DNA of 15,862 bases from Alphaproteobacteria bacterium SS10 (GTDB taxonomy: Bacteria > Pseudomonadota > Alphaproteobacteria > TMED2), in the NCBI GenBank assembly GCA_019192455.1, contig JAHCML010000005.1, forward strand, positions 32,324 through 48,185, read 5' to 3'. How positions within the stretch are numbered: position 1 is the stretch's first letter; each line of letters begins with the position of its first letter. Below, piece after piece: positions 3-12,914 of the stretch. The notes under the pieces were generated by a model that saw only the letters and a program-made list of their open reading frames with translations, was not told where the DNA came from and did not search any database. The translations under genes and the position numbers were made by a program.

Positions 3-587
3 GATGCCGATCATGTTCGATTGATCGCGAGCGAGGGGCCCAGCAATTGGCAACAACCACGCAGCATGCCACTCGCCGATGGTCGAACCTATCTCGACGG
101 CTTCGACAGCGTAATCCCACGTGGCGATATCTCGGTTGCTGGCAGCGTGCAGGGCGACAACATCACCATGGTTGCGGGCACGATTGAGATTGCAGGTGGC
201 GCCATGGGTGACATCGACCTGCAAGCCTCCCAAGGCGAAGTGGCGGCAATGCGCATCGCCGACGGTCTTGGGCTTAACTACGTCACCTATCCCGGTGATC
301 AGGATGTGCCACGCATCATGCGATCCTACGATCTGCCAGCAGAGATGGTCGCAGCACAGAGCATTCCAGACACTGACGTCACAGAGATGGGCCGCTGGCC
401 AATTCAGTCAGCCGAGGTATCGATCAGCATTGGCGGCATCACCGGCGATGAGGTCGTTATGCGCACACCGCGCGATGCCGCATTAGAACCAGCTGAACCT
501 AGTATCCTTGGTCAGGCCATTGCCGCTGTCGCTAATCGCCTGCCTGGATTTGATGGCATACCGGTACGGGCTGTTGGTGGGCCCTAG
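3..587 (+). CDS. Hypothetical beta-solenoid-like repeat protein, 5'-partial. It is a paralogue of the 1851-2819 product.
   Basis: The frame is open back to the window edge, with no stop between position 3 and the TTG at 21. The C-terminal 150 aa align with the C-terminus of the 1851-2819 protein: ITMVAGTIEIAGGAMGDIDLQASQGEVAA against IAITAGEITIGGEAQGQITLSASGGEVAG, and ISIGGITGDEVV against INIGGEVGPDVV. Short G-x-[IV]-x repeats resemble a bactofilin or beta-helix, but no homology search was possible. Confidence 0.5.
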   Translation, partial: DADHVRLIASEGPSNWQQPRSMPLADGRTYLDGFDSVIPRGDISVAGSVQGDNITMVAGTIEIAGGAMGDIDLQASQGEVAAMRIADGLGLNYVTYPGDQDVPRIMRSYDLPAEMVAAQSIPDTDVTEMGRWPIQSAEVSISIGGITGDEVVMRTPRDAALEPAEPSILGQAIAAVANRLPGFDGIPVRAVGGP

Positions 588-631
588 GGGCACGGACTGA
601 TTGACGTAAGTTGAGGTGTGGGGGCAGCTCA

Positions 632-1717
632 ATGGGGGCATTTCAAGGCAAGCAATTCCGAGGTGGCATCCTGCGTCAGCTATCCATGACGCGGGGCATC
701 ATCGGTGTTCTGTCTGCGCCGCTGCCAGTTGCCGCCGCTGGTGCAACCCATGAAACCCCAGCCATCACTGATCCAGATGCTGGCGTCCGCCTGAACAGTG
801 CGTCGCTTGAGCGTTGGCGCGCGAAGAACCGCGATAACTGCCTGATGCCGGGTGAGGCACCAGACAGCAAGACTGAGCAGCTGTTGAACAGGTTCTATGG
901 CTATATCCGTCAGTCAGAGCTCGCGGATCGGCTGTACCAAGATTTGTCTGGTGGTACCGCCACCCTTTGCACCAATGCAGCAACGAAAATCCCGGCATCA
1001 GCGGCCGCCATCTACCTCATTGGTCAGGACGCGGCGATCATCAACGCGAATGGTGCCGGTGGCCGCGTGGTGTTGAGTGGCCTGCATGAGCTTCGCCATG
1101 GGTGGCAGGATCAAAACCGCCTGCTTGACCGGATGTTGGCAGAGACGAAGCAGAACCGGTTTGCGGCCCTCTATATGGTTGAGGCGGATGCCGCTGCCTT
1201 CGCGGTTGCTGGCGCCTACCAGTTAAAGCAGGCCGGTGCGACGGAGGCCTGGGAGGCCGCGCAGAAGAGCCCAACCTATAAGCCGCTGACCGAGGCGTTT
1301 GAGCGTGAGATTGGCACGATCCCCGATGGTGCCAAGCTTTCCGATGGCCAGATCCGGCGCGGCATGCAGGGCGCCTTTCACGCTTGGTTCGACAACTCTG
1401 GTTTGGACAAGGCCTATACCGACCGACACCTAGAGGGTTGGCGTTCGGTCGCTGATAGCGGCATAGGGCGTGCTGTGAACATCCGACAGCTTGCGATGGA
1501 GCTGGGCAAGCTGCCCGGCAGTGGTGGCCGGCCAAGCCCCAGTTACATGGGCATTCAAGAGATCAAGAAGGCCCAGAGCCGGGCACTCGAATTGGTTGAG
1601 CGTCAGCAAACCTCGCCACGCGACAACCCGGTGGGCAATCCTTTACTGACCTCTGATGGCAAACCCGAGGGGCCCAAACGTGTGCCCGTGCCTGGCTCGT
1701 CCAGCGGCGCAATCTAA
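632..1717 (+). CDS. Hypothetical secreted protein with an HExxH zinc-metallopeptidase-like motif.
   Basis: Long ORF with GC-rich codon usage. An ATG at 632 is preceded by GAGGTG at 614-619. There is a hydrophobic N-terminal segment (IIGVLSAPLPVAAAGA). A LHELRHGW (HExxH) motif sits mid-protein, with a downstream Glu-rich region. The start is uncertain: ATG 632 or ATG 686. Confidence 0.55.
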   Translation: MGAFQGKQFRGGILRQLSMTRGIIGVLSAPLPVAAAGATHETPAITDPDAGVRLNSASLERWRAKNRDNCLMPGEAPDSKTEQLLNRFYGYIRQSELADRLYQDLSGGTATLCTNAATKIPASAAAIYLIGQDAAIINANGAGGRVVLSGLHELRHGWQDQNRLLDRMLAETKQNRFAALYMVEADAAAFAVAGAYQLKQAGATEAWEAAQKSPTYKPLTEAFEREIGTIPDGAKLSDGQIRRGMQGAFHAWFDNSGLDKAYTDRHLEGWRSVADSGIGRAVNIRQLAMELGKLPGSGGRPSPSYMGIQEIKKAQSRALELVERQQTSPRDNPVGNPLLTSDGKPEGPKRVPVPGSSSGAI

Positions 1718-1850
1718 CCCCGGCCATTGGTAGTCGGTCATAAGCCCGTACCGGCTTTCAGCAGGCAGGCGTATTTGTAGTGGATACCCAATCGGCATAG
1801 CCGTGCAGGCCCACGGGTTTTAAACCGCCAGACCGGGGATTGGATCAGCC

Positions 1851-2819
1851 ATGAGTGATGAACCAGACCAAGGCCAAAAGCCTAGCAAGACAGGAACCGG
1901 GGTCGCCCTTCCTGCCCTGCTTTTTACCGGTGTTGTTGGCGGTGCGGGCGCGGCTATCGCGATCTTTGGCAGTGGTCCGCAGGCCGAGTTAACCCCAACC
2001 GATATCGCGGCACAGCCGGCGGCGGTCACCATTGTTGAGGGTGACCCCAGCGCGGTCGCAGATGGGGCACTCGTCTATGATTTGGGGGATACGGCATTCA
2101 ATGACTGGCGGGCTGGCGGTACCAACCGCATCGTCTTGCCTGGTTCGGATATCCTGCCAGAGCTTGAGATTGATGCCAGCAAGGTTCAGTCGGGCATTTA
2201 TGAGTTTGAGGGCGATCTGACCATTCGTGGTGATCTCACCATGCCCTATACCGAGTTCCGCGCGAATAGCATTACCGTCACCGGTTCCGTCCGCGCCGAT
2301 CACGTCACGCTGACCGGGATCGAAGGGGAGGGTGAGAATGGCTTCCCGCAGTTTCGGGATGAGCATAGCGAGCACTATTACATCTACCATTGGAACCGTG
2401 AGTTTGAGCGCGGCAATGTGAGTGTGGCCCAGGACGTGATGGGTTACGGCATTGCCATTACTGCCGGTGAGATAACAATTGGTGGCGAGGCCCAGGGCCA
2501 AATCACCCTCTCTGCCTCAGGTGGTGAGGTCGCGGGTGTTTACCTGCATGATGATCACTACGGTGCTTACAAGGATGTAACTGAGGTGCGCGAGGATCAG
2601 ATCCCCGCTGAACATTTCTACTTCGATGAACGTCGGCCGCTTCGAGACACTCGCAGAGTGATTAATATCGGTGGTGAGGTCGGGCCCGATGTGGTGCAGC
2701 AGAGCACTGTGGAATGGACGCGTCAGCGCAATATCGCTGCCGGTATCGAGTTGCCGAATAACCCCTTGCCACCGCATCTTCGCCGCTACGGTGAGCCCGT
2801 CATTACGATGCGACCCTAG
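1851..2819 (+). CDS. Membrane-anchored beta-solenoid-like (bactofilin-like?) repeat protein.
   Basis: 322-aa ORF. The N-terminus has one predicted TM helix (VALPALLFTGVVGGAGAAIAIFG). Repeats include GDLTIRGDLTM, ITVTGSVRADHVTLTG and IAITAGEITIGGEAQGQITLSASGGEVAG. The C-terminal half is paralogous to ORF 3-587. Confidence 0.6.
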   Translation: MSDEPDQGQKPSKTGTGVALPALLFTGVVGGAGAAIAIFGSGPQAELTPTDIAAQPAAVTIVEGDPSAVADGALVYDLGDTAFNDWRAGGTNRIVLPGSDILPELEIDASKVQSGIYEFEGDLTIRGDLTMPYTEFRANSITVTGSVRADHVTLTGIEGEGENGFPQFRDEHSEHYYIYHWNREFERGNVSVAQDVMGYGIAITAGEITIGGEAQGQITLSASGGEVAGVYLHDDHYGAYKDVTEVREDQIPAEHFYFDERRPLRDTRRVINIGGEVGPDVVQQSTVEWTRQRNIAAGIELPNNPLPPHLRRYGEPVITMRP

Positions 2820-2890: not shown

Positions 2891-4042
2891 TTAAGCCTCA
2901 TCCCGCAGCTTGACCAGATCGTTCAGCAGGCCGTCGGTACCGTTGGTTACGGTCAGCCGTTCGACCTTACCGGCAATCGTTTCAAGCGCTTCCAGCTCTT
3001 TCAGCCGCAGCATCACTGGGTTTTCAGCGATGACCTTGGCCGTGTTCAGCAGCGACCGGGTGGCGTTTGTTTCCTCCCGCCGCTTGATCACGCTGGCCTC
3101 GGCCTGTTTCTCGGCTGCGACCACGGTGTTCAGGATGTCCCGCATCTCACCCGGCAGGACGACGTCCTTTAGGGTGATATCCGAGACCTCGACACCGATC
3201 TTGGCGAGATCGGCCCGGATCTTGTCGAGCGCCAGAGCATCGACCGTCGCCTTGTTTTCAAGGATCTGGTCGAGGGTCTTGGCACCCAGCTCTTTCCGAA
3301 ACACGGTTTGTAGCGACCGGTACAGGACGTCTTGGAAGTCCTTAACGTCCGTAACGGCAGCCACCGGGTCCGTGACTTGGTAGGTGGCGGTGACATTGAT
3401 CCGGATGGTCACCCGGTCCTTGGTCAGGAGTTCCTGACCAGTGACGTCGAGTGCCTGCACCCGGCCATCAATGACTTTCACCTCCACCGACCGGCCAGCC
3501 CGCCAGAAGCCGTAGGCCCCAGGCTTGAGCACCCGATCCAGGACACCGTCGACGAACACCAGACCGGTTTCACCATCGGCGATGGTGGCCAGGGTAGCGA
3601 GACCGGTGAGGTTGGTTTTCGTCAGTCGCCGCAGCAGCGGGCCCTTGATCACCATATCCTCCACCGCATCGGTGACGGTTGCCGTCCATGGGCCAGCTTC
3701 GGTCCAGAGGACCAGCCGCTGATCCGGGCCCAGCACTTGGAAGACCCGGCCATCCTGCTCGATGACGGCCACCTCTTGCGGGCCGGTTGTCACCAGCGTC
3801 AGCTGCTCGGCCGCGATATCAGGGAGCCTATCGAACAGGGCGGTCTCGTAGCTGGAGACTAGGACAGCCTCGGTCAGCTCGGCCCATTCCAGATCAAGCC
3901 GATGCCCGCGTGAAGGCAGCCAGTATTCACCTGGCATCAGGATGTCCCTCAGCTGACCCTTGTCGAGCCAGATGGCCCGCTCGGTCTCGTTCACGATCAC
4001 CCGGGTTCTACCGGTGATCCATTCTTTCAGTTTGATCATCAT
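2891..4042 (-). CDS. SPFH (band-7, stomatin/prohibitin-like) domain protein with an N-terminal extension of about 170 aa.
   Basis: The C-terminal 200 aa show the typical SPFH pattern: RVTIRINVTATYQVTDPVAA, FRKELGAKTLDQILENK, IGVEVSDITLKDVVLPGEMRDIL and AEKQAEASVIKRREETNA. ATGATG start at 4042 with an AGGAG Shine-Dalgarno sequence about 9 nt upstream. No TM helix is evident. Confidence 0.85.
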   Translation of the reverse strand: MMIKLKEWITGRTRVIVNETERAIWLDKGQLRDILMPGEYWLPSRGHRLDLEWAELTEAVLVSSYETALFDRLPDIAAEQLTLVTTGPQEVAVIEQDGRVFQVLGPDQRLVLWTEAGPWTATVTDAVEDMVIKGPLLRRLTKTNLTGLATLATIADGETGLVFVDGVLDRVLKPGAYGFWRAGRSVEVKVIDGRVQALDVTGQELLTKDRVTIRINVTATYQVTDPVAAVTDVKDFQDVLYRSLQTVFRKELGAKTLDQILENKATVDALALDKIRADLAKIGVEVSDITLKDVVLPGEMRDILNTVVAAEKQAEASVIKRREETNATRSLLNTAKVIAENPVMLRLKELEALETIAGKVERLTVTNGTDGLLNDLVKLRDEA

Positions 4043-4247
4043 CGTTCTTACTCCTGTTTCATCGCTTCGCGGCTTTGCTAACGCACGGGCGATACTCCTT
4101 TGGTTGTTTATCGAGGGCTGGTTGATGGGCCCGGGCCGCCGCCCTCGAATGAAGACAGCCCGGGTGTTCCGATTACGTGTTCGAACCTTGTGTTCGGAAA
4201 TTCTGGGAGACGCTCAAAGGCGCCCGGATGGCCGGGGGCAACCCCTG

Positions 4248-4300
4248 GTCACGGGTCGATGGGCGCGAGATCCGCGGTCGATGCCCCAGCGCCCGTGACC
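4248..4300. promoter_or_regulatory. Structured inverted repeat in the SPFH upstream region.
   Basis: Perfect 9-bp inverted repeat ggtcacggg (4248-4256) / cccgtgacc (4292-4300) encloses 35 nt that contain a direct 8-mer repeat, ggtcgatg, twice. It lies about 210-250 bp upstream of the SPFH start. Confidence 0.25.
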
Positions 4301-4528
4301 GATCTGCCAGGGCGATGCCTGGTCAATCAGGTGTTGGGGGTTGGGGCACGGAACCGGCGGCTCGGGCCGCAAAGACCGGCAGCTGGGGGAGGGTTGTGTT
4401 GCCCTGCTCGCTAGACCCCGACGCTGTTCACCAATGGTAAATTCCCAAGGGCAATCAACGCCGGCGCGTTGCAGGGCGCGGCAACATCCCGTCCATCCGG
4501 GCTAGTTTTGGAGACCGTCACAGGGTCG

Positions 4529-4600
4529 TGCAAAGCGTGGGAATCGAACCCACAACAATCAGATCCTGAGTCTGATGCTCTACCGTTGAGCTAGCTTGCT
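4529..4600 (-). tRNA. tRNA-like element or tRNA pseudogene: class-I cloverleaf with anticodon CAG and a defective acceptor stem.
   Basis: The minus strand reads AGCAAGC-TA-GCTC-AACGGTA-GAGC-A-TCAGA-CTCAGGA-TCTGA-TTGTT-GTGGG-TTCGATT-CCCAC-GCTTTGC-A (72 nt). D-arm, anticodon arm, 5-nt variable loop and T-arm are canonical. The acceptor pairs only if one A is added to the 5' strand (GCAAGC against GCTTTGC). CAG would decode Leu, but Leu tRNAs are class II with a long variable arm. Confidence 0.45.
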
Positions 4601-4975
4601 GGGACGATTGGATATCGTCGGCAAATCGACCAGACCGATGGCGCATCCAAACATGGGCCGTGGCAGTGCCAAGCCATGTGGGCGAGTAAATTTTGAAACT
4701 CTGACCATGTGTCACCTCCGGGTTATTCCGGTCGAGGGTCGCGGTGGATACGCGAAACACGAATCACTGGCAACAAGAAATTTTCGGGCCCTAGCTGTCT
4801 TGTTCTGGGTGTTGGGTCGGATTTGGCAATAAAACATCACCAGACATCGCATGTTCAGAATGAATATTTCGATCTATAAGTAATCATCGTATCATTCATT
4901 GCGTTTTTTGAATGCGTTGCAAAAAGCTATTGGCGGAAAGTGCCGGTGCTGGCAGCCTAATAGAACAGATCGCCG

Positions 4976-5003
4976 ATGGGCGGCGATCTTTGTTCAACTC
5001 GAA
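4976..5003 (+). terminator. Orphan intrinsic-terminator-like hairpin.
   Basis: agatcgccg-atggg-cggcgatct (9-bp perfect stem, 5-nt loop) followed by tttgtt. There is no upstream plus-strand CDS. Confidence 0.35.
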
Positions 5004-5564: not shown

Positions 5565-7520
5565 ATGAAGATGATGGCTGAAGATTTTGATGATGATTTA
5601 GATGACCAGGGCGACCATGACCGTACCGGTCGTATGAGAAGCCGCAGTGAATCCGCGGCCCTCTACGCCAAGACATGGGCGTTCTCTTGGAACTACTGGC
5701 GCCAGCACCCCAAGCTGTTTTGGGGCGTGTTTGCCATGACCTGCCTCATGATTGCGGCGGATGTGGTGTCACCTTGGCTGGCCGGCTCGATCGTTGATGC
5801 GATCGTGGTTGATGCCAGTGCCAGCACTGCCCTCTGGGCGGTGGCCGGTTATGTGGGGATCATGGCGCTTTTCCATGGTTCCAAGCACATCACCGAGCAG
5901 CTTTGGATCCGGCTGGCGCCGATGTGTATGGAGCAAATCGTCAATGATGCGTTCCAACGCGTGCAGCGCTTCTCCTCGGACTGGCATGCGAACAGCTTTG
6001 CCGGTGCCGTGGTCCGCAAGATTACCCGCGGTAAGTGGGGCTTCGACCTTTATGGCGATACCCTGCTTTGGGGAGTGTTTCCCGCTGCGGTGATCTTGAT
6101 CGGCTGTACCCTCGCCCTTGCCATCCAGTGGTGGCAGGTGGGCCTCTTCGTTGGGGTGACCGGGGCGATCTATGTGGTGGTCAGCGTGATGATGGCCGTC
6201 CATTGGATCGGACCGGCAAACCAGCAGCAGGTGGCCCAGGACAGCAAGATCTCGGGCCTGTTGGCTGACGCCCTCGGCTGTAATGCCGTGGTGAAGGCCT
6301 TCGGTTCTGAGGCGCGGGAGGATCGCCGCATCGCTAAGGCGGCGCGCCTCTGGCACTTGCGGGCCCGGCGTAGCTTGGGTCGGGCCGTTGGCTCAGGCGG
6401 GTTCCAGTCCATCATGGTGACCATCATGATGGCGGGCGCGTTGAGCCTGGCAATCTGGCTCTGGCATGTGGGCCAGGCGACCAGCGGCGATATCGTCGTG
6501 ATCATGTCGACCATCCATGTGGTCAACGCCTATCTGCGGTTTGTTGGGCAGCATGCCGAGCATCTGCAGAAGTCGGTGAACGAGATGGAAGATGTGATCC
6601 GCTTCATGGACCAAGAGATCGCGGTCCGTGATGTGCCCGGGGCCCCACCTTTCCAGGCGGCTGTTAATGACAGTCAAGAGGGCGGTGGTGCTAAGGGCGG
6701 TGAGATCCGCTTTGAGGGTGTGACCTTCCGCTATGGCGGGCAGGTGGACCCGCTCTACCGTGATTTCGATCTGGCGATTAAGCCGGGCGAGCGGGTGGGG
6801 CTGGTTGGGCCTTCGGGCTCAGGTAAGTCGACCTTCGTGAAGCTGTTGCAGCGGCTTTACGATTTGAATGATGGGCGGATCGTGATCGACGGTCAGGATA
6901 TCGCACTCGTTCAACAGTCGAGCTTGCGCCGTGCGCTTGCCATGGTCCCGCAGGAGCCGGTGCTGTTCCACCGTTCGCTCGCCGAGAACATCGCCTATGG
7001 ACGGCCAGGTGCCGGCCGGGCGGCGATCGAGGCAGCGGCGCGGGAGGCCCTCGCCCATGACTTCATCATGCGCCTACCCCAGGGTTACGACACCCTGGTC
7101 GGTGAGCGCGGCGTGAAGCTCTCGGGTGGTGAGCGACAACGGGTGGCAATTGCCCGCGCGTTGTTGGCCGATGCACCGGTCCTGATCTTGGATGAGGCCA
7201 CGGCGGCGCTGGACAGCATCGCCGAGGCGGAAATCCAGCGGGCCCTGGGTCGCTTGATGGCCGGTCGGACCACGCTCGTCGTGGCCCACCGTCTGGCAAC
7301 GGTTCAGGGGATGGACCGGATCCTGGTGTTCAACCAGGGCCGGATCGTCGAGGAGGGCAGCCATGCGGCCCTGCTGCAAAGAGAGGGTGGCCACTACCGC
7401 GCCCTGTTTGAGGAGCAGGCCCTGGGCCTAATGGATGGCCTAGACGCCAGCCAGAAGGCAGCCCTACTAGCCGGCCAAGCGCCAGCCATTGAGGCACATC
7501 TAAAAAACGGCGCTGCGTAA
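5565..7520 (+). CDS. ABC transporter, fused permease/ATP-binding protein (type I exporter, MsbA-like).
   Basis: 651 aa. The N-terminal half has multiple hydrophobic TM segments. The nucleotide-binding domain has Walker A GPSGSGKST, ABC signature LSGGERQRVAIARAL, Walker B ILDEAT and H-loop VVAHRL. There is an acidic N-terminal extension (DFDDDLDDQGDHD). Confidence 0.9.
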   Translation: MKMMAEDFDDDLDDQGDHDRTGRMRSRSESAALYAKTWAFSWNYWRQHPKLFWGVFAMTCLMIAADVVSPWLAGSIVDAIVVDASASTALWAVAGYVGIMALFHGSKHITEQLWIRLAPMCMEQIVNDAFQRVQRFSSDWHANSFAGAVVRKITRGKWGFDLYGDTLLWGVFPAAVILIGCTLALAIQWWQVGLFVGVTGAIYVVVSVMMAVHWIGPANQQQVAQDSKISGLLADALGCNAVVKAFGSEAREDRRIAKAARLWHLRARRSLGRAVGSGGFQSIMVTIMMAGALSLAIWLWHVGQATSGDIVVIMSTIHVVNAYLRFVGQHAEHLQKSVNEMEDVIRFMDQEIAVRDVPGAPPFQAAVNDSQEGGGAKGGEIRFEGVTFRYGGQVDPLYRDFDLAIKPGERVGLVGPSGSGKSTFVKLLQRLYDLNDGRIVIDGQDIALVQQSSLRRALAMVPQEPVLFHRSLAENIAYGRPGAGRAAIEAAAREALAHDFIMRLPQGYDTLVGERGVKLSGGERQRVAIARALLADAPVLILDEATAALDSIAEAEIQRALGRLMAGRTTLVVAHRLATVQGMDRILVFNQGRIVEEGSHAALLQREGGHYRALFEEQALGLMDGLDASQKAALLAGQAPAIEAHLKNGAA

Positions 7521-7533
7521 TAGCGGTGTTAGG

Positions 7534-7565
7534 AAGCCCGGGGGTCAATGCTCCCGGGCTTTTCC
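7534..7565 (+). terminator. Rho-independent terminator of the ABC transporter gene.
   Basis: aagcccggg-ggtcaatgct-cccgggctt followed by tttcc, 14 nt after the stop codon. Confidence 0.65.
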
Positions 7566-7602
7566 TGCTTCACATCAGAATAAAGTATACGATAAGTATT
7601 TT

Positions 7603-7693
7603 TGGTGGGTCGCCAAGGAATCGAACCTCTCGCTGTAACCACCCCAAGATTTTACAGCACAGCGTTTACAGCGCCGCATGGGGAAAGCGACCC
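7603..7693 (-). tRNA. tRNA-derived element (91 nt, CCA encoded): Tyr-like anticodon stem-loop, no foldable D-arm, oversized variable hairpin. Probably a pseudo-tRNA or remnant.
   Basis: The minus strand reads GGGTCGC...GCGACCC-A-CCA, a perfect 7-bp acceptor, with T-arm AGAGG-TTCGATT-CCTTG. The internal hairpin CGGCG-CTGTAAA-CGCTG gives anticodon GTA. Only 7 nt separate acceptor and anticodon arm, so there is no D-arm. The motif GCTGTAAA is duplicated and forms a 7-bp variable hairpin. Confidence 0.45.
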
Positions 7694-7843
7694 AAGAGTA
7701 ACTAATTTTGATGTGTGAATTTGGCACGCAGTCTCACCGCAGCGGGATTTTCCCGCTGCGCTAAAAATTAACTGCAATAATAATATATAAGAGCGTGCAT
7801 AGCCCGATAAATGACCGTTTTTTAATCGTAAGTCAAATTTAAA

Positions 7844-7861
7844 TTCGATGTATTTACATCG
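7844..7861 (-). terminator. Putative terminator hairpin of the AT-rich orphan gene.
   Basis: tcgatgt-attt-acatcga (7-bp stem) lies 30 nt downstream of the stop at 7892 on the minus strand and is followed by an A/T-rich tract (auuuaaauuu). Confidence 0.35.
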
Positions 7862-7891
7862 AGCGGCCCTAGCGTCGGTTGGCCAATGGCT

Positions 7892-8708
7892 TTATCGTTG
7901 CCGCATAAGCCAGTTCCTAACTTCCCGCATAGACTCGTTGAACTCGCGAGGGTGCCAAGGAAGCTCTAGAGATTCTTCAATTGGTCGTGCACACTCAAGC
8001 ATTCTGATGCCATCCCATCTTTTGAGCACGTAGATAGCCAGATCCTCGCTGCTCATTTTGCCGATACTACTCTTTAGATGAGAGAGCATTTCGCTCGGCA
8101 TTGATTTGACGATTTTTTTGGCAAATTTGCTTATTTCTTTTTGGGTTTTATTTTCTATATTTTCTATTTCTTGTCTTTTCCATAATGAATTTATGAACAT
8201 ATAGGCTGATATTTTGTTTTTACATTTGTACATGTCCCCTTTTTTATGTACAAAATCATTTATTTTGAATGATTCCATCAATTTTCGATATAAATTATTA
8301 TTGGGTGTAAAGTATTCTATGCTGCTACTCACCCAGCCAAATTGGTAGGAATTTTCCAGTATTATATTAATAGACCTATCAATATCTTGTTCTGATAAAT
8401 TTGGCATTGAAATTATCAGCTCATGTATAAGATCTGATTCAATGATTTGTTCGGATATTCCTTTTTCAAAATCACTTTCTATTATGTTGTATTCTACTAG
8501 AAGGTAATATGCGCGTTCGCCGCTCGACACATATCCCGTTTCAATTTGGTATGCTTTGCGATTGTCGCACCACCATCTTGGAAGGCTGTCGGCTAAGAAA
8601 CCCAGTATTGTGCTTAGGAGTAAGATCTGATCATCAGTTGCTTTCTCTGAAATCATCGACGAATCCTCAATCACGTAGTTGTTCTCAGTGAGGTTTTCGG
8701 TGGCCATT
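7892..8708 (-). CDS. Orphan hypothetical protein encoded in an AT-rich (foreign) islet.
   Basis: About 272-aa ORF at roughly 30% GC, against about 60% in the flanks. The likely start is ATG at 8708 (MATENLTENNYVIEDSS), with GGGAGGGAG about 15 nt upstream. The ORF track's 359-aa version extends the frame into unrelated GC-rich DNA. The protein is I/N/K/E/S-rich with no recognisable motif. Confidence 0.6.
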
Positions 8709-8765
8709 GATCCCGCGCCTATCTCCCTCCCATGAGAGAGAGTACGGTAAAAAGCCGCCATCGAC

Positions 8766-8860
8766 CGACCAATAAATGCAGGTCTATTACGATGGGTCTT
8801 GTCCCTTACGTCGTAAGGAGTTCGCCTGGTATGGGCGCCGGGAGATTGAGGCGCCAATCT
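8766..8860 (+). pseudogene. Duplicated 5' fragment of the DUF393/DCC thiol-disulfide oxidoreductase gene.
   Basis: About 90% nucleotide identity over about 85-95 bp with 9654-9740. It encodes MQVYYDGSCPLRRKEFAWYGRREIEA, against MQVYYDGSCPLCRKEIAWYERRGIEA in the intact gene. The second Cys of CxxC is lost and similarity ends after about 28 codons. Confidence 0.6.
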
Positions 8861-8947
8861 GCCCGGTCCTAATTGTTTTCCCGCTTTCACTGGTTGAGCG
8901 TAAACGCGACGGATACCCGAAACACTATGGTTACAAGGATCAGCGCC

Positions 8948-9574
8948 ATGGCCACCGGATATCCCTTGCAAGATGATGAGCTAACCCAGGCTGACTTCGC
9001 CATCGCCTTGAGTGCGATGCCGACCCATAAGAGCCATTGGAGTGCGACGGATGAACGGCGGGCGCTGTATCTCGATCTGGCTCGAATGTCCGAGGGGCTG
9101 ACCTTCATCGATGAGGCGCGTGGTTTTCGCTTCCCCTGCGTCCGGGCCAGCTTCGGATATCTTGAAGACATCATGGCCGCGATCCCGCAGGCCGCCGTTC
9201 AGGCCGGTGCCATCTCCAATGAGATGGGCATATTTCAGGGTCGTCATGATTCAATCGTCGAAGATCAGAAGGGTGGCTATGCCGCTGGCGCTCAAGCGCC
9301 CTCCATCCGCGCTGCCCTGCTCTATGACGTGAAGAAGGATGAGGTGGTTGGCCTATCCGGTGCCGGTCGGGTTGCGCTGGCGATGCTAGACGCGGAATTC
9401 TCCGGACAGTTCTCCCCGCAGAATTTGCGCGAGCGAGGCCTCGACTATTTCAATAAGCAGTTGGAGGCAGCCGGGTTCGACCCCATGACCATGCCAGCGC
9501 CCAAGGCTGACCGGCAGGGGGCGGCACCCAAGCCAGATGCACCCGACGGCACCGGTCGGCCCATGCGGCCCTAG
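8948..9574 (+). CDS. Hypothetical protein.
   Basis: GC-rich ORF. ATG at 8948 with AAGGAT 8 nt upstream. Alternative starts at 8927 or TTG 8873. No recognisable motif; the C-terminus is Pro/Ala-rich. Confidence 0.5.
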   Translation: MATGYPLQDDELTQADFAIALSAMPTHKSHWSATDERRALYLDLARMSEGLTFIDEARGFRFPCVRASFGYLEDIMAAIPQAAVQAGAISNEMGIFQGRHDSIVEDQKGGYAAGAQAPSIRAALLYDVKKDEVVGLSGAGRVALAMLDAEFSGQFSPQNLRERGLDYFNKQLEAAGFDPMTMPAPKADRQGAAPKPDAPDGTGRPMRP

Positions 9575-10853: not shown

Positions 10854-11981
10854 ATGAGTGACGAAACCAAGGCTGGTTCTGCTAAAGGTGATGTTGCGGC
10901 AATAATCCGCGCGGCGTTCCGCGAGGGTTGGATGGCCCGGCATCAGCTTCGCGAGCCGGATGAGAACGATGTGGAGAATGACTGGATCATCTCTGAGGCG
11001 CGCAAGGCGGGAACCAGTGAATTCAAGGCGGTGACGCCAGAGTTAGTCCGCGACTGCTACCGCGCCCTGCTAAAGCGTGAGCCAGAGAACGATGATGTCG
11101 TTGCGGCCAGGGTTGCGGGGACGTCGAGCGTCTCTGATTTGCTCGAATCCTTCCGTCGATCACCAGAGCTGCTGCACCGGGCCTATATTGAGTATCTGCG
11201 GCGGCACAGCCCAGCGCTCAAGCCAAAGCCCCGGTTCGATCTCGATATAGCGCCGGACCAATTCAACCGATTGTTTGAAAGAGTAGTCACCCAATGGAGT
11301 GACCTTGGTCAGGCCGAGCCCTATTGGTCCGTGCTGACAGATGAGAAGTACAAAAGCGATGCGATTGATGAGGAGGTGCGGCAACGCTTCTACGACACTG
11401 GGAAGGATCTAGAACGGGAATTGAGACAGCTCCACGCCCGCAATGACGTGGCTTTTCAGGGTGGTGTCTGCTTGGAGCTCGGCGCGGGTGTCGGACGGTT
11501 AACCACCACATTGGCAAAGATGTTTGATCGGGTTATTGCGGTCGACATCTCACCGGGGAACCTAGAGATATGCAGAAAACATCTAGAGAAAAATAATATA
11601 GATAATGTCGATTTCAAAATTATATCCAACCCAGAACAGATTGGTGAATTAGAAAATTTTGATTATTTTTATTCGTTAATGGTGCTGCAGCATAATCCGC
11701 CGCCAATTCAAGAGTATATACTGGATATAATATTTAGAAATCTGAATGAAGGTGGGTTTGTTAATTTTCAACTGCCAACCAGTACGCCAGAATACCAGTT
11801 TGATATTGAGGCTTATTTGAGCTCATCACGCCAGGTTATGGATATGCATGATTTACCCATGAGTCGCGTATTCAGGCTTTTCCAGCGTCATGAAATCTTA
11901 CCGATAGATGTGATTATGGATAGCCACACGGGCACGTTTGGATCTCATAGCTTCTTCGGCCAAAAGCGGTCGGGGTCTTGA
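10854..11981 (+). CDS. Class I SAM-dependent methyltransferase with an N-terminal domain of about 200 aa. Compositional mosaic.
   Basis: Motif I LELGAGVGRLT, post-I acidic VIAVDIS, DYFYSLMVLQH and LNEGGFVNFQLP. It starts 13 nt after the GST stop. GC drops from about 60% to about 35% at about 11560 and recovers at about 11920, all within one intact frame. Confidence 0.75.
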   Translation: MSDETKAGSAKGDVAAIIRAAFREGWMARHQLREPDENDVENDWIISEARKAGTSEFKAVTPELVRDCYRALLKREPENDDVVAARVAGTSSVSDLLESFRRSPELLHRAYIEYLRRHSPALKPKPRFDLDIAPDQFNRLFERVVTQWSDLGQAEPYWSVLTDEKYKSDAIDEEVRQRFYDTGKDLERELRQLHARNDVAFQGGVCLELGAGVGRLTTTLAKMFDRVIAVDISPGNLEICRKHLEKNNIDNVDFKIISNPEQIGELENFDYFYSLMVLQHNPPPIQEYILDIIFRNLNEGGFVNFQLPTSTPEYQFDIEAYLSSSRQVMDMHDLPMSRVFRLFQRHEILPIDVIMDSHTGTFGSHSFFGQKRSGS

Positions 11982-11997
11982 GGCGCGGCGTTCGAAT

Positions 11998-12303
11998 ATG
12001 AGCCCTGATGAATTGGCGGCGGGCCGCGTCTACCTTACCGGCCATATCGATGTGCCGGCGGATCGCCTGACAGCGGTTCGCGATGCGCTGGATGAGCACA
12101 TCGCCCTGACCCGGGCAGAGCCGGGCTGTCTGTCATTTGACGTGGTGGAGCAGGATGACCCGCCAGGTCGGTTCTCGGTGGCTGAAGTCTTTGAGAACCA
12201 GCAAGCCTTCGATGCCCATCAGGAACGGACCAAACAGTCAGCTTGGTTCCAGGTAACCGAGCGGATTCCCCGGCATTACACAATCACGACCAAGGCGGAT
12301 TAG
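11998..12303 (+). CDS. Antibiotic-biosynthesis-monooxygenase (ABM/Dabb) domain protein.
   Basis: About 101 aa from ATG 11998. FENQQAFDAHQERTKQSAWFQ is typical of ABM-fold proteins. Confidence 0.6.
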   Translation: MSPDELAAGRVYLTGHIDVPADRLTAVRDALDEHIALTRAEPGCLSFDVVEQDDPPGRFSVAEVFENQQAFDAHQERTKQSAWFQVTERIPRHYTITTKAD

Positions 12304-12914
12304 TCGTCCAGGGCGGCTAGATCGCCATCCCCATACTGTACATAACCGTCAGGACCAGTTGGCCGAAGCTTCTTAGCCTTCCAGCATCGCTTACCATCAT
12401 CCTGGGTCAGTTCAGGATTGGCCGCTTTGAATGCACGTAGGTAGCGTAGGTAGTTGTTGTGCTTGGCGATCGGCTTCTGGTCAGGGGCGGCACGGTTCCG
12501 CGCTTCAATCTCGTACCAGGCTGCAATCGCGTCATTCAGGCTATACCCCGGATGCGCCCTGACCCAGGCCATGAACTCACCCGAGCAGGTAAAGCCTTTG
12601 CCAATCTCCGCCTTGAAGAACCCGCGGACATTCGGGCCAAAGCTAATCTGGTCATCAATGATCTCACCTCCGGTGAGCGCTGCCTTGGACCAATTGATGC
12701 GGTTGGTCTGTTGGGTTGGCTTGGTGGTGGGTCGTTCCTCACTCTGACCATCCAACCGGGCCGCTATCCGATGACGAAGCTCAGCCTTACTGCCAGCCCT
12801 GGATAGCTGGAGGGTTTCGCAGATGGTCTCCAGCATCTCCTTCTCCCAATACCAGCCGAGAAACTGATCGCCGGTCATACCGGGATTGAAGGCCGGGCGG
12901 GTGCCATCGCTCAT
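12300..12914 (-). CDS. SAP-domain-containing hypothetical protein.
   Basis: The N-terminal stretch MLETICETLQLSRAGSKAELRHRIAARLDG matches the SAP motif. ATG at 12914 forms an ATGA overlap with the stop of the upstream hydrolase gene. Confidence 0.65.
   Translation of the reverse strand: MSDGTRPAFNPGMTGDQFLGWYWEKEMLETICETLQLSRAGSKAELRHRIAARLDGQSEERPTTKPTQQTNRINWSKAALTGGEIIDDQISFGPNVRGFFKAEIGKGFTCSGEFMAWVRAHPGYSLNDAIAAWYEIEARNRAAPDQKPIAKHNNYLRYLRAFKAANPELTQDDGKRCWKAKKLRPTGPDGYVQYGDGDLAALDD

Follow-up and report, generated by a model that had tools for sequence, protein, structure and literature searches.

The subject of this report is a tRNA-like element on the minus strand of a 15,862-nucleotide (nt) stretch of DNA from Alphaproteobacteria bacterium SS10. 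This whole stretch is referred to as the window, and coordinates are positions in the window unless another locus is named. The element (4528-4599) precedes, on the same strand, a gene coding for a slipin, a protein of the SPFH/Band-7 superfamily. We interpret it as a structured tRNA mimic, a b7a-tRNA, which goes with a soluble cage-type Band-7 protein, and assign a probability of about 80% to this reading. Membership in the b7a-tRNA class is well supported, and the element is probably not a decoding tRNA because the triplet in its anticodon position varies freely between relatives. The copy in the window is a reduced member of the class, with one module and without a linked RtcB. Its CAG "anticodon" and the mismatch between a leucine triplet and a class-I body are incidental, and the one-base irregularity of its acceptor stem is within the normal range of the family.

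The b7a-tRNA was predicted by Burroughs and Aravind in 2016 (NAR 44:8525) as a non-coding RNA (ncRNA) which resembles tRNA and is found beside a Band-7/SPFH protein, as summarised in a passage of a preprint from the Wolin laboratory (10.1101/312249). In the same passage, the b7a-tRNA/Band-7 pair is described as functionally parallel to Ro60-YrlA and as experimentally unvalidated. We recognise the class by a tRNA-like cloverleaf adjoining a Band-7 gene, by the retention of this pairing in distant lineages, and by linkage to RtcB or other RNA-repair genes. The first is seen in the window, and the second in the loci described below (59 of 59 census loci, 13 genome loci, and the metagenome scaffold L041). 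The third is lacking in the window but is found in 19 of the 43 relatives whose downstream DNA is long enough.

A single tRNA was called in the window by ARAGORN (4528-4599, minus strand, 72 nt), namely tRNA-Leu with the anticodon cag. The Rfam tRNA family RF00005 matched at 4599-4529 (minus strand) over its full length (model positions 1-71) with 59.3 bits (E-value 7e-11), as compared to a gathering score of 29 bits; such a score speaks for shape, not for function. The family covariance model (R1) assigned 73.5 bits to the element (E-value 1e-20). The parts of the cloverleaf could be read directly from the sequence of the minus strand. The 5' acceptor strand GCAAGC (4599-4594) is followed by U8 and A9 (4593-4592), by the D arm GCUC-AACGGUA-GAGC (4591-4577), and by a single A. 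The anticodon stem UCAGA/UCUGA (4575-4571 and 4563-4559) encloses the loop CUCAGGA (4570-4564, with CAG at 4568-4566). Next come the variable loop UUGUU of 5 nt (4558-4554), the T arm GUGGG-UUCGAUU-CCCAC (4553-4537), the 3' acceptor strand GCUUUGC (4536-4530), and the discriminator A73 (4529). CCA is not encoded, the bases after the discriminator being CGA. The element carries U33, G37, A73, and an intact D/T tertiary signature. With a variable loop of 5 nt instead of a long arm, it is not a canonical class-II tRNA-Leu.

The RF00005 alignment places a one-base deletion in the 5' acceptor strand (GCA-AGC versus 3' GCUUUGC). The minimum free energy (MFE) fold is a cloverleaf with a 6-bp acceptor stem and a bulged U (-23.3 kcal/mol), and when one A is inserted, the acceptor stem becomes a perfect helix of 7 bp (-28.0 kcal/mol). 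A preliminary description made from the sequence alone had already pointed to a class-I tRNA-like element with a CAG anticodon at this position, with canonical D, anticodon, and T arms, a 5-nt variable loop, and a 1-nt acceptor lesion which an inserted A would repair. All of this is borne out by the ARAGORN call, the RF00005 match with its deletion, and the MFE fold, to which we add that the element is on the minus strand.

RF00005 is the only Rfam family which reached its gathering score in the window. A sub-threshold match to the Plastid-ycf2 5'UTR RNA was obtained on the plus strand opposite to 4528-4599 (36.5 bits, gathering score 65.7); we rejected this identity, as the match is an artefact from the antisense of a tRNA.

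The association of the element with a slipin gene is not restricted to the window. A total of 185,579 species genomes were scanned with a pattern that combines the class-I body with a CUCAGRA loop and is thus biased towards this loop. The scan returned 30 genome loci and 7 loci in viral contigs. Upon tblastn comparison with the window proteins, a slipin gene was found directly downstream and on the same strand in 10 of the 30 genome loci (including L026 from Bryobacterales), and the slipin N-terminus is visible at the truncated ends of 4 further ones. In total, 13 of the 30 loci have a slipin gene, while L026 has an N-terminal remnant alone. The linked loci, L026 included, are from four Bradyrhizobium species, Planctomycetaceae, Planctomycetales, Gemmataceae, Phycisphaerales, Steroidobacter, Orbus, Bryobacterales, and Bdellovibrionales; the 13 with a slipin gene span four or more phyla. 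In several of the linked elements, the acceptor stem is too degraded for an ARAGORN call. Cultivable carriers of this slipin subfamily are the four Bradyrhizobium species, Orbus sasakiae, and Mesorhizobium.

The bias towards CAG was removed in a census of metagenome loci which were fetched by homology to a slipin alignment (the best 80 of at least 592 related loci, with slipins 37-63% identical to the window protein). Pairing was counted on the 59 census loci with at least 650 nt of upstream DNA. In 48 of these, the 800 nt before the slipin gene contain one tRNA, or two abutting ones, called by ARAGORN on the strand of the gene. The remaining 11 have a match of 57-75 bits at the expected position to the family covariance model, which was built from 66 slipin-upstream elements, and the same holds for the genome locus L042. 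Taken together, a tRNA-like element is thus present upstream of the slipin gene in 59 of 59 loci. Across the slipin loci, the distance between module and gene start has a median of 357 nt (range 150-598), and the orientation is always that of the gene. In the window, the slipin gene (2891-4042, minus strand) is 485 nt downstream of the element.

Several class-I CAG matches without a slipin gene proved to be of other kinds. Seven genome loci (L009, L010, L011, L014, L017, L022, L038) and two viral contigs (L007, L008) have the body of an initiator tRNA-fMet (CGCGGGG...GGGCUCAGAACCC...CCCCGCAACCA) with three G-C pairs closing the anticodon stem and with CAU changed to CAG. They are spread over unrelated phyla and phage contigs, and each is a candidate initiator for CUG starts. 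Four other viral contigs (L003-L006) carry large phage tRNA clusters, with about 20 tRNAs including class-II Leu tRNAs, and a tmRNA with the tag DEKSDFTFEDAMSFVGGEFALAA. About 1.8 kb beyond the cluster, a class-I tRNA with an A/U-rich acceptor stem stands by itself and has the anticodon CAG. In a cyanobacterial locus (L028), the open reading frame (ORF) downstream of a class-I CAG tRNA had been suspected to code for a TROVE/Ro60 protein, but it has no Pfam match.

A direct comparison is possible with L041, a metagenome scaffold from ENA which codes for a slipin (66% identity to that of the window) and an ABC transporter (76%), and which has DUF6782 genes syntenic with those in the window. Its tRNA-like element, a perfect cloverleaf, shares the strand of the slipin gene and precedes it by 509 nt. 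It has the same D stem and anticodon stem as the window element, and the T stem (GUAGG/CCUAC versus GUGGG/CCCAC) differs by one compensatory pair. The acceptor stem (GUUUGGA/UCCAAAC) is wholly different, yet fully paired. The anticodon is ACG where the window has CAG. The core of the window element is 89% identical to that of the ortholog, while the flanks have diverged. The ortholog thus keeps the scaffold and changes two of the three anticodon bases, which is not the behaviour of a decoding tRNA. Another relative, L039 (92% identity), ends 42 nt short of the tRNA-like element.

The same pattern is found throughout the family. In alignment A6, which is enriched for ARAGORN-callable elements and therefore flatters the pairing of the acceptor, 96.7% of the cells in the cloverleaf helices pair, compared to 70.1% in column shuffles. 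The covariation score is 0.708, as against 0.178 in shuffles and 0.08-0.17 when the partners are slid, and double compensatory changes occur at 15 of 20 pairs. The D arm (UAGCUCA...GG.AGAGC) and the T arm (GGUUCRAnnCC) are nearly invariant. This shows that strong selection, both purifying and compensatory, acts on the D arm with its GG, the T arm with its UUCRA, and the four helices.

The features which make a tRNA a decoding one are treated differently by the family. They were counted on 61 gene-proximal modules, 50 of which have anticodon loops of 7 nt. These 50 carry 21 different triplets, the commonest being GAU (10 modules) and CAU (9), followed by many others. In the other 11, the loop has 5, 6, or 8 nt. 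Class-I bodies carry Leu, Ser, and Tyr triplets alike. Any base may stand at the discriminator, the outer pairs of the acceptor are unconserved, and 7 of the 61 modules encode CCA. For module pairs whose cores share 90% identity or more, the difference per site is 0.48 at the anticodon, 0.08 in the rest of the core, and 0.11 at loop positions 32, 33, 37, and 38, which means that the anticodon changes about 6 times faster than the core. This pattern may reflect relaxed constraint or diversifying selection alike. A conserved anticodon, a 7-nt loop, a 7-bp acceptor stem, and a conserved discriminator, as expected from a decoding tRNA, are not kept. The Leu anticodon of the window element on a class-I body and its imperfect acceptor are ordinary for the family, and the former mismatch arises because the triplet drifts freely on a class-I scaffold.

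We have nevertheless considered that the element is a working non-canonical decoding tRNA, either a class-I tRNA-Leu(CAG) or a mischarging tRNA which would supplement CUG decoding in the manner of stress-induced array tRNAs. The high tRNA score (59.3 bits) and the presence of U33, G37, and A73 are in favour of this. A73 is the major identity element for the leucyl-tRNA synthetase (LeuRS) of E. coli, for which the long arm is dispensable, and this was counted on the same side. Class-I CAG tRNAs are known from phage tRNA clusters, and 23 of 26 array tRNAs from Anabaena are aminoacylated (PMC8421152). We nevertheless consider a decoding function unlikely. The syntenic ortholog has ACG, the family has 21 triplets together with loops of 5, 6, and 8 nt, and the fastest-evolving part is the anticodon, which is the opposite of what a decoding tRNA shows. 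Discriminator and acceptor sequence are unconserved, so that no single synthetase identity is kept. The acceptor stem of the window element is bulged, its CCA is unencoded, and its linked gene codes for a Band-7 protein and has no part in translation.

The irregular acceptor stem could be taken as an error in the assembly or in sequencing, with AA for AAA and a true stem of 7 perfect pairs. The gain of 4.7 kcal/mol upon insertion of one A would agree with this, and a homopolymer error was among the explanations offered by the preliminary description. Three points make it very unlikely. The independent Logan assembly of run SRR14140256, which may stem from the same reads, agrees with the window without a single difference (100% identity, 14,980 nt), acceptor site included. 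Short runs of A are not error-prone on Illumina platforms. Imperfect acceptors are the rule among the relatives: when pairs are counted without gaps, all 7 positions pair in 6 modules, 6 positions in 23, 5 in 15, 4 in 14, and 3 in 3, so that 55 of 61 lack a perfect stem. Even if an error were present, the identity of the element would be unchanged.

The same description had proposed decay into a pseudogene, and the lesion could then mark lost function or the remnant of an integration site. One base is missing in the 5' acceptor strand and CCA is absent; furthermore, the element sits in an unusually long non-coding gap of 1.5 kb, and a low-GC island is 3 kb away. We regard this as the least probable of the explanations considered, given the 59/59 positional association, the strong compensatory covariation in all variable helices, and a core which has stayed 89% identical to that of L041 while the flanks diverged. 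When up to 3 mismatches were allowed, the only match in the window to the 24-mer at the 3' end of the tRNA was the element itself, so that an att-type repeat is lacking, and no integrase or phage families were found near the element in Pfam and PHROGs checks of the window proteins. A third proposal, a non-canonical tRNA such as phages or mobile elements carry, comes closest of the three but is imprecise. It holds in its first half, as the element is a non-canonical tRNA-like RNA, defined by its partner, the gene for a soluble Band-7/slipin protein. A phage or mobile origin finds no support, with phage genes, integrase, and att-type repeat all lacking here. Consistent with this, a BLAST search with the 73-mer of the element against phage and plasmid collections found no close relative and only generic tRNA similarity (74-83% over the core from D to T arm, mixed isotypes), so that the suggested relation to tRNAs of phages and mobile genetic elements is not upheld.

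Many slipin loci have two abutting modules upstream of the gene, while the window and L041 have only the gene-proximal type. The window element (4528-4599, minus strand) is assigned to this type as a class-I cloverleaf, based on ARAGORN, RF00005, model R1, and the MFE fold, and the family covariance model detected no further module in the window at E <= 0.1. In the distal module, the acceptor stem is usually complete, CCA is encoded, and the loop is an unusual one of 6 nt. The proximal module begins inside or just after the distal CCA, and its acceptor often has 4 bp (consensus CACUGGA...UCCAAGA).

Directly 3' of the window element is a hairpin which resembles an anticodon arm (4513-4527, minus strand; GACC-CUGUGAC-GGUC, with a 4-bp stem and a 7-nt loop). 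Of 62 loci, 32 have a hairpin with a loop of the form YU-NNN-[AC][AC] in the 30 nt that follow the proximal module, compared to 0.7 expected from shuffles. In nine leaders (L012, L033, L035, L041, L076, L080, L096, L103, and L109), the first ~120 nt past the proximal module contain in addition a GC hairpin with a GNRA cap (for example GGCGAAAGCC or GGUCGAAAGACC) and a T-arm-like hairpin (GUGGUUCAAAUCCAC). The anticodon-arm-like hairpin and these two combined look like a class-II tRNA reduced to its 3' two-thirds, lacking the 5' strand of the acceptor and the D arm. The leader of the window has the first hairpin and a second one (CCCG-GAUGGA-CGGG) without a T-loop motif.

The leader between the element and the slipin start codon (4043-4512, minus strand) is 82% identical to that of the closest relative, L039, and beyond the modules, leaders are conserved among close relatives only. 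Neither a canonical terminator nor a sigma-70 promoter was found in the window leader. Terminator-like sites are present in 15 of 62 leaders (about 5 expected from shuffles), and with these numbers and none in the window, we rejected an intrinsic terminator after the element as a family feature.

The element might be part of a leader that acts only in cis on the slipin gene, either because a cut by RNase P or RNase Z sets the 5' end of the mRNA, or because the leader senses activities which modify or cleave tRNA. The constant orientation, the short and bounded distance of 150-598 nt, the missing canonical terminator between element and gene, and the conserved hairpin directly after the element would all suit such a role. 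The leader sequence beyond the modules is unconserved, however, and tandem modules with complete acceptor and CCA look like released RNAs. While we consider a purely cis-acting leader quite unlikely, such a function is compatible with a role in trans within a ribonucleoprotein (RNP), and neither excludes the other.

A conserved block (4642-4773, minus strand) precedes the element and shows 77% identity over 137 nt with L041. It is probably a promoter or a 5' leader. Within it, 57 nt upstream of the 5' end of the element, is a sigma-54-type promoter-like sequence (TGGCACTGCCACGGCC; 4656-4671, minus strand) with GG-N10-GC and 8 of 10 consensus positions. L041 has a perfect sigma-54-type consensus (TGGCACTGCCATTGCC) at the aligned position (about 2856-2841 of that locus), before the tRNA, and the Orbus locus L021 has such a sequence (TGGCACGCTTTTCGCA) upstream of its element. 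In these three loci, the sites (TGGCAC-N5-TTGC) are 55-110 nt upstream of the element. Good sites are restricted to a subset (L041, the window, L021, and a few others), and we thus treat them as a lead and have rejected a sigma-54 promoter as a family feature. A gene for an enhancer-binding protein was not seen in the window.

Other motifs were observed in the upstream regions. One motif is shared by distant phyla 150-250 nt before the element, as CAUGAAAAAAUCACACG in four Bradyrhizobium loci (L016, L029, L034, L036) and as CAUGAAGAAAACCACACG in a locus from Planctomycetaceae (L018). A GUGUUCCGCG-like motif occurs in many loci, the window having CGUGUUUCGCG at about 4745. These could be binding sites of regulators or RNA elements. 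Further upstream, at 4967-4989 (minus strand) and thus before the conserved block, there is a terminator-like hairpin of 9 bp, its U tail being weak. It is not preceded by any gene on the minus strand, and terminator-like sites are no more frequent in this region than in shuffles.

The invariant partner gene (2891-4042, minus strand) codes for a slipin of 383 aa (Pfam Band_7, PF01145, 2.7e-33). An identical protein from a metagenome-assembled genome is named "slipin family protein" at NCBI and is attributed to an unclassified alphaproteobacterium. No transmembrane segment is predicted, the highest Kyte-Doolittle value of any 19-aa window being 1.13. In the AF2 model (pLDDT 80), two truncated N-terminal beta repeats, which resemble the start of an SPFH domain, are followed by a full SPFH domain and a C-terminal helix of ~60 residues. 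The protein therefore has the SPFH domain and the long oligomerising helix by which the superfamily is recognised. A profile search against the PDB retrieved stomatin (3.6e-28), and a Foldseek search of the model against the PDB retrieved the cages of stomatin, HflK/C, prohibitin, erlin, and flotillin (best E-value 3e-15). The Foldseek match to the major vault protein (MVP) is whole-length and has the highest query coverage (E-value 5e-10, TMq 0.41-0.43). The model is consistent with a soluble oligomer of cage or vault-like type.

As a b7a-tRNA, the RNA would be transcribed with the slipin mRNA or just ahead of it, and it is probably excised by tRNA-processing enzymes. The Band-7 oligomer probably then binds it, resulting in an RNP analogous to that of Ro60 with Y RNA or of the vault with vault RNA, which may act in response to damage of tRNAs or ribosomes. 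One conceivable role of the RNP is that of a scaffold or cofactor which brings enzymes acting on tRNA, such as RtcB, to their substrates; another is that of a tRNA-shaped decoy for anticodon nucleases. In the abstract of Burroughs and Aravind from 2016, SPFH/Band-7 modules and "a novel tRNA-like molecule" are reportedly named as potential scaffolding cofactors of RNA-repair systems.

The decoy idea can be extended to a bait. The b7a-tRNA would then mimic those host tRNAs which are targeted by anticodon nucleases of competitors or phages, and the vault-like cage would hold or present the baits so as to sequester the nuclease or sense the cleavage, leading to a repair or stress response. A rigid scaffold, anticodon-loop turnover near saturation, the two or three tandem modules with different loops in many loci, and a free hairpin resembling an anticodon arm would fit diversifying selection for such mimicry. 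The CAG loop of the window element would, if this is true, be a sensor tuned to a loop of the tRNA-Leu(CAG) type. We consider the bait a tentative proposal and rather doubtful.

Several points weigh against our interpretation of the element as a b7a-tRNA mimic. Its expression, its processing, and its binding to Band-7 we infer from sequence. The quality of the cloverleaf (A73, G37, and the intact D/T tertiary signature) would be compatible with aminoacylation, and the aminoacylated state of the Anabaena array tRNAs mentioned above points in the same direction. GAU and CAU are over-represented among the triplets, and the triplet may thus not be entirely free. RtcB, RlaP, and HNH have no match in the window or in the gene lists of the contig (coordinates 15702-37791 of the 37.8-kb Logan contig), so that the link to RNA repair is made by the family and not by the local context. 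Finally, the definition of b7a-tRNA which we applied is second-hand, being the summary contained in 10.1101/312249. In this literature, linkage to RtcB is stated for "certain bacteria", and may therefore be optional.

The link to RNA repair became evident when the ORFs of all sampled loci were clustered and Pfam was run on the cluster representatives. RtcB (PF01139, 2e-129) is encoded in 30 loci overall and in 19 of the 43 with enough downstream DNA. In these 19, it is mostly directly downstream of slipin, with a few cases up to 1.8 kb downstream or upstream. An HNH endonuclease is encoded in 16 loci and an RlaP nucleotidyltransferase (PF10127) in 5. In about 12 slipin loci, the slipin gene closes, on the 3' side, an array of 12-22 tRNA genes that is accompanied by HNH and RtcB genes. 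RtcB is missing also from most of those sampled relatives that are closest to the slipin of the window. A family of ~320 aa without a Pfam match is found beside RtcB and slipin in 5 loci (L076, 3229-4083; L080, 2319-3278; L085, 4616-5560; L089, 3903-4865; L096, 2331-2915) and is a candidate for a further component of the system.

The 1.5-kb gap between 4043 and 5564 lacks credible ORFs. An ABC exporter gene (5565-7520) is located upstream of the element and is divergent from it. No TROVE gene is present in the window, PADLOC reported no defence-system families near the element, and PADLOC, PHROGs, and NCBIfam provided no specific family for the slipin or for the neighbouring proteins. On the other side of the slipin gene is a tandem gene array (window 21-2819 and the contig beyond; L001, 11224-21042; L040, 1-7255), in which DUF6782 proteins (putative metallopeptidases) alternate with ORFs of ~320 aa that do not belong to any family. 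At least 6 copies of DUF6782 are encoded on the contig; the array is syntenic in L041 and absent from all other slipin loci. The low-GC island (7500-9000) has a GC content of 0.39-0.41, compared to about 0.60, and contains an ORF for a protein of 359 aa (7892-8971, minus strand) without a Pfam, PHROGs, or PADLOC family. A second dip in GC content (11000-12500, 0.49-0.50) covers the 3' part of a methyltransferase gene.

Annotation pipelines would label the element as tRNA-Leu(CAG) or as a pseudo-tRNA, which is misleading for analyses of codon usage, genetic code, and tRNA repertoire; 13 of the 30 class-I "tRNA(CAG)" matches across the 185,579 species genomes are this slipin-linked element. The b7a-tRNA/Band-7 pair is a widespread candidate RNP at the point where RtcB repair, stress-induced tRNA arrays, and the biology of SPFH cages meet. 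To this, the window adds an alphaproteobacterial variant in which RNA and protein are paired without a linked ligase, and the persistence of the pair under these circumstances suggests that it is the functional core. The census provides handles for further work: the 59/59 association, the hypervariable anticodon, the often relaxed acceptor, two module types and a hairpin, and a soluble partner predicted to be vault-like.

Among known systems, the b7a-tRNA system itself is the closest match. As there, a tRNA-like ncRNA adjoins a Band-7/SPFH gene in the window, and many relatives have RtcB next after the Band-7 gene. Unlike the systems with RNA-repair genes, the copy in the window has a single module and no RtcB, RlaP, or HNH nearby. 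A search of a literature library for "tRNA-like" in connection with SPFH or slipin returned no link beyond 10.1101/312249, PMC10272220, and PMC8421152. The latter two concern Anabaena, where the slipin gene alr0740 is derepressed together with rtcB and an array of 26 tRNA genes in a trcR mutant and under translational stress (PMC10272220), and where long tRNA arrays are linked to HNH and RtcB genes (PMC8421152). The likeness extends to the slipin being co-induced with array and rtcB in Anabaena and to the arrays which about 12 of the sampled slipin loci terminate. However, array tRNAs are aminoacylated and keep to the standard architecture of their isotype, with class II for Leu, Ser, and Tyr, whereas slipin-proximal modules are class I whatever their anticodon, and the window has no array.

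A canonical bacterial tRNA-Leu(CAG) shares CAG, G37, and A73 with the window element, which differs from it by the 5-nt variable loop, the bulged 6-bp acceptor stem, the missing CCA, and an ortholog with another anticodon. The YrlA/Y RNA and Ro60 (Rsr) systems, with their rsr-yrlBA-rtcBA operons, also combine an ncRNA mimicking tRNA with a ring or cage protein and a link to RtcB, and the roles suggested for YrlA are those of a cofactor or of a decoy for anticodon nucleases. In YrlA, a long Ro-binding stem replaces the anticodon arm and the partner is a TROVE protein, whereas the window element is a full cloverleaf, with an anticodon stem of 5 bp and a loop of 7 nt, and has an SPFH partner. The vault particle is similar in that MVP matches the slipin model along the entire length of the latter (beta repeats, SPFH-like shoulder, long helix) and in that both would involve a small structured RNA. 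MVP, in contrast, has about 800-900 aa and is eukaryotic, and the best matches of the slipin are the stomatin and HflK cages. We thus take the similarity between the modelled slipin and MVP to indicate a shared architecture rather than functional homology.

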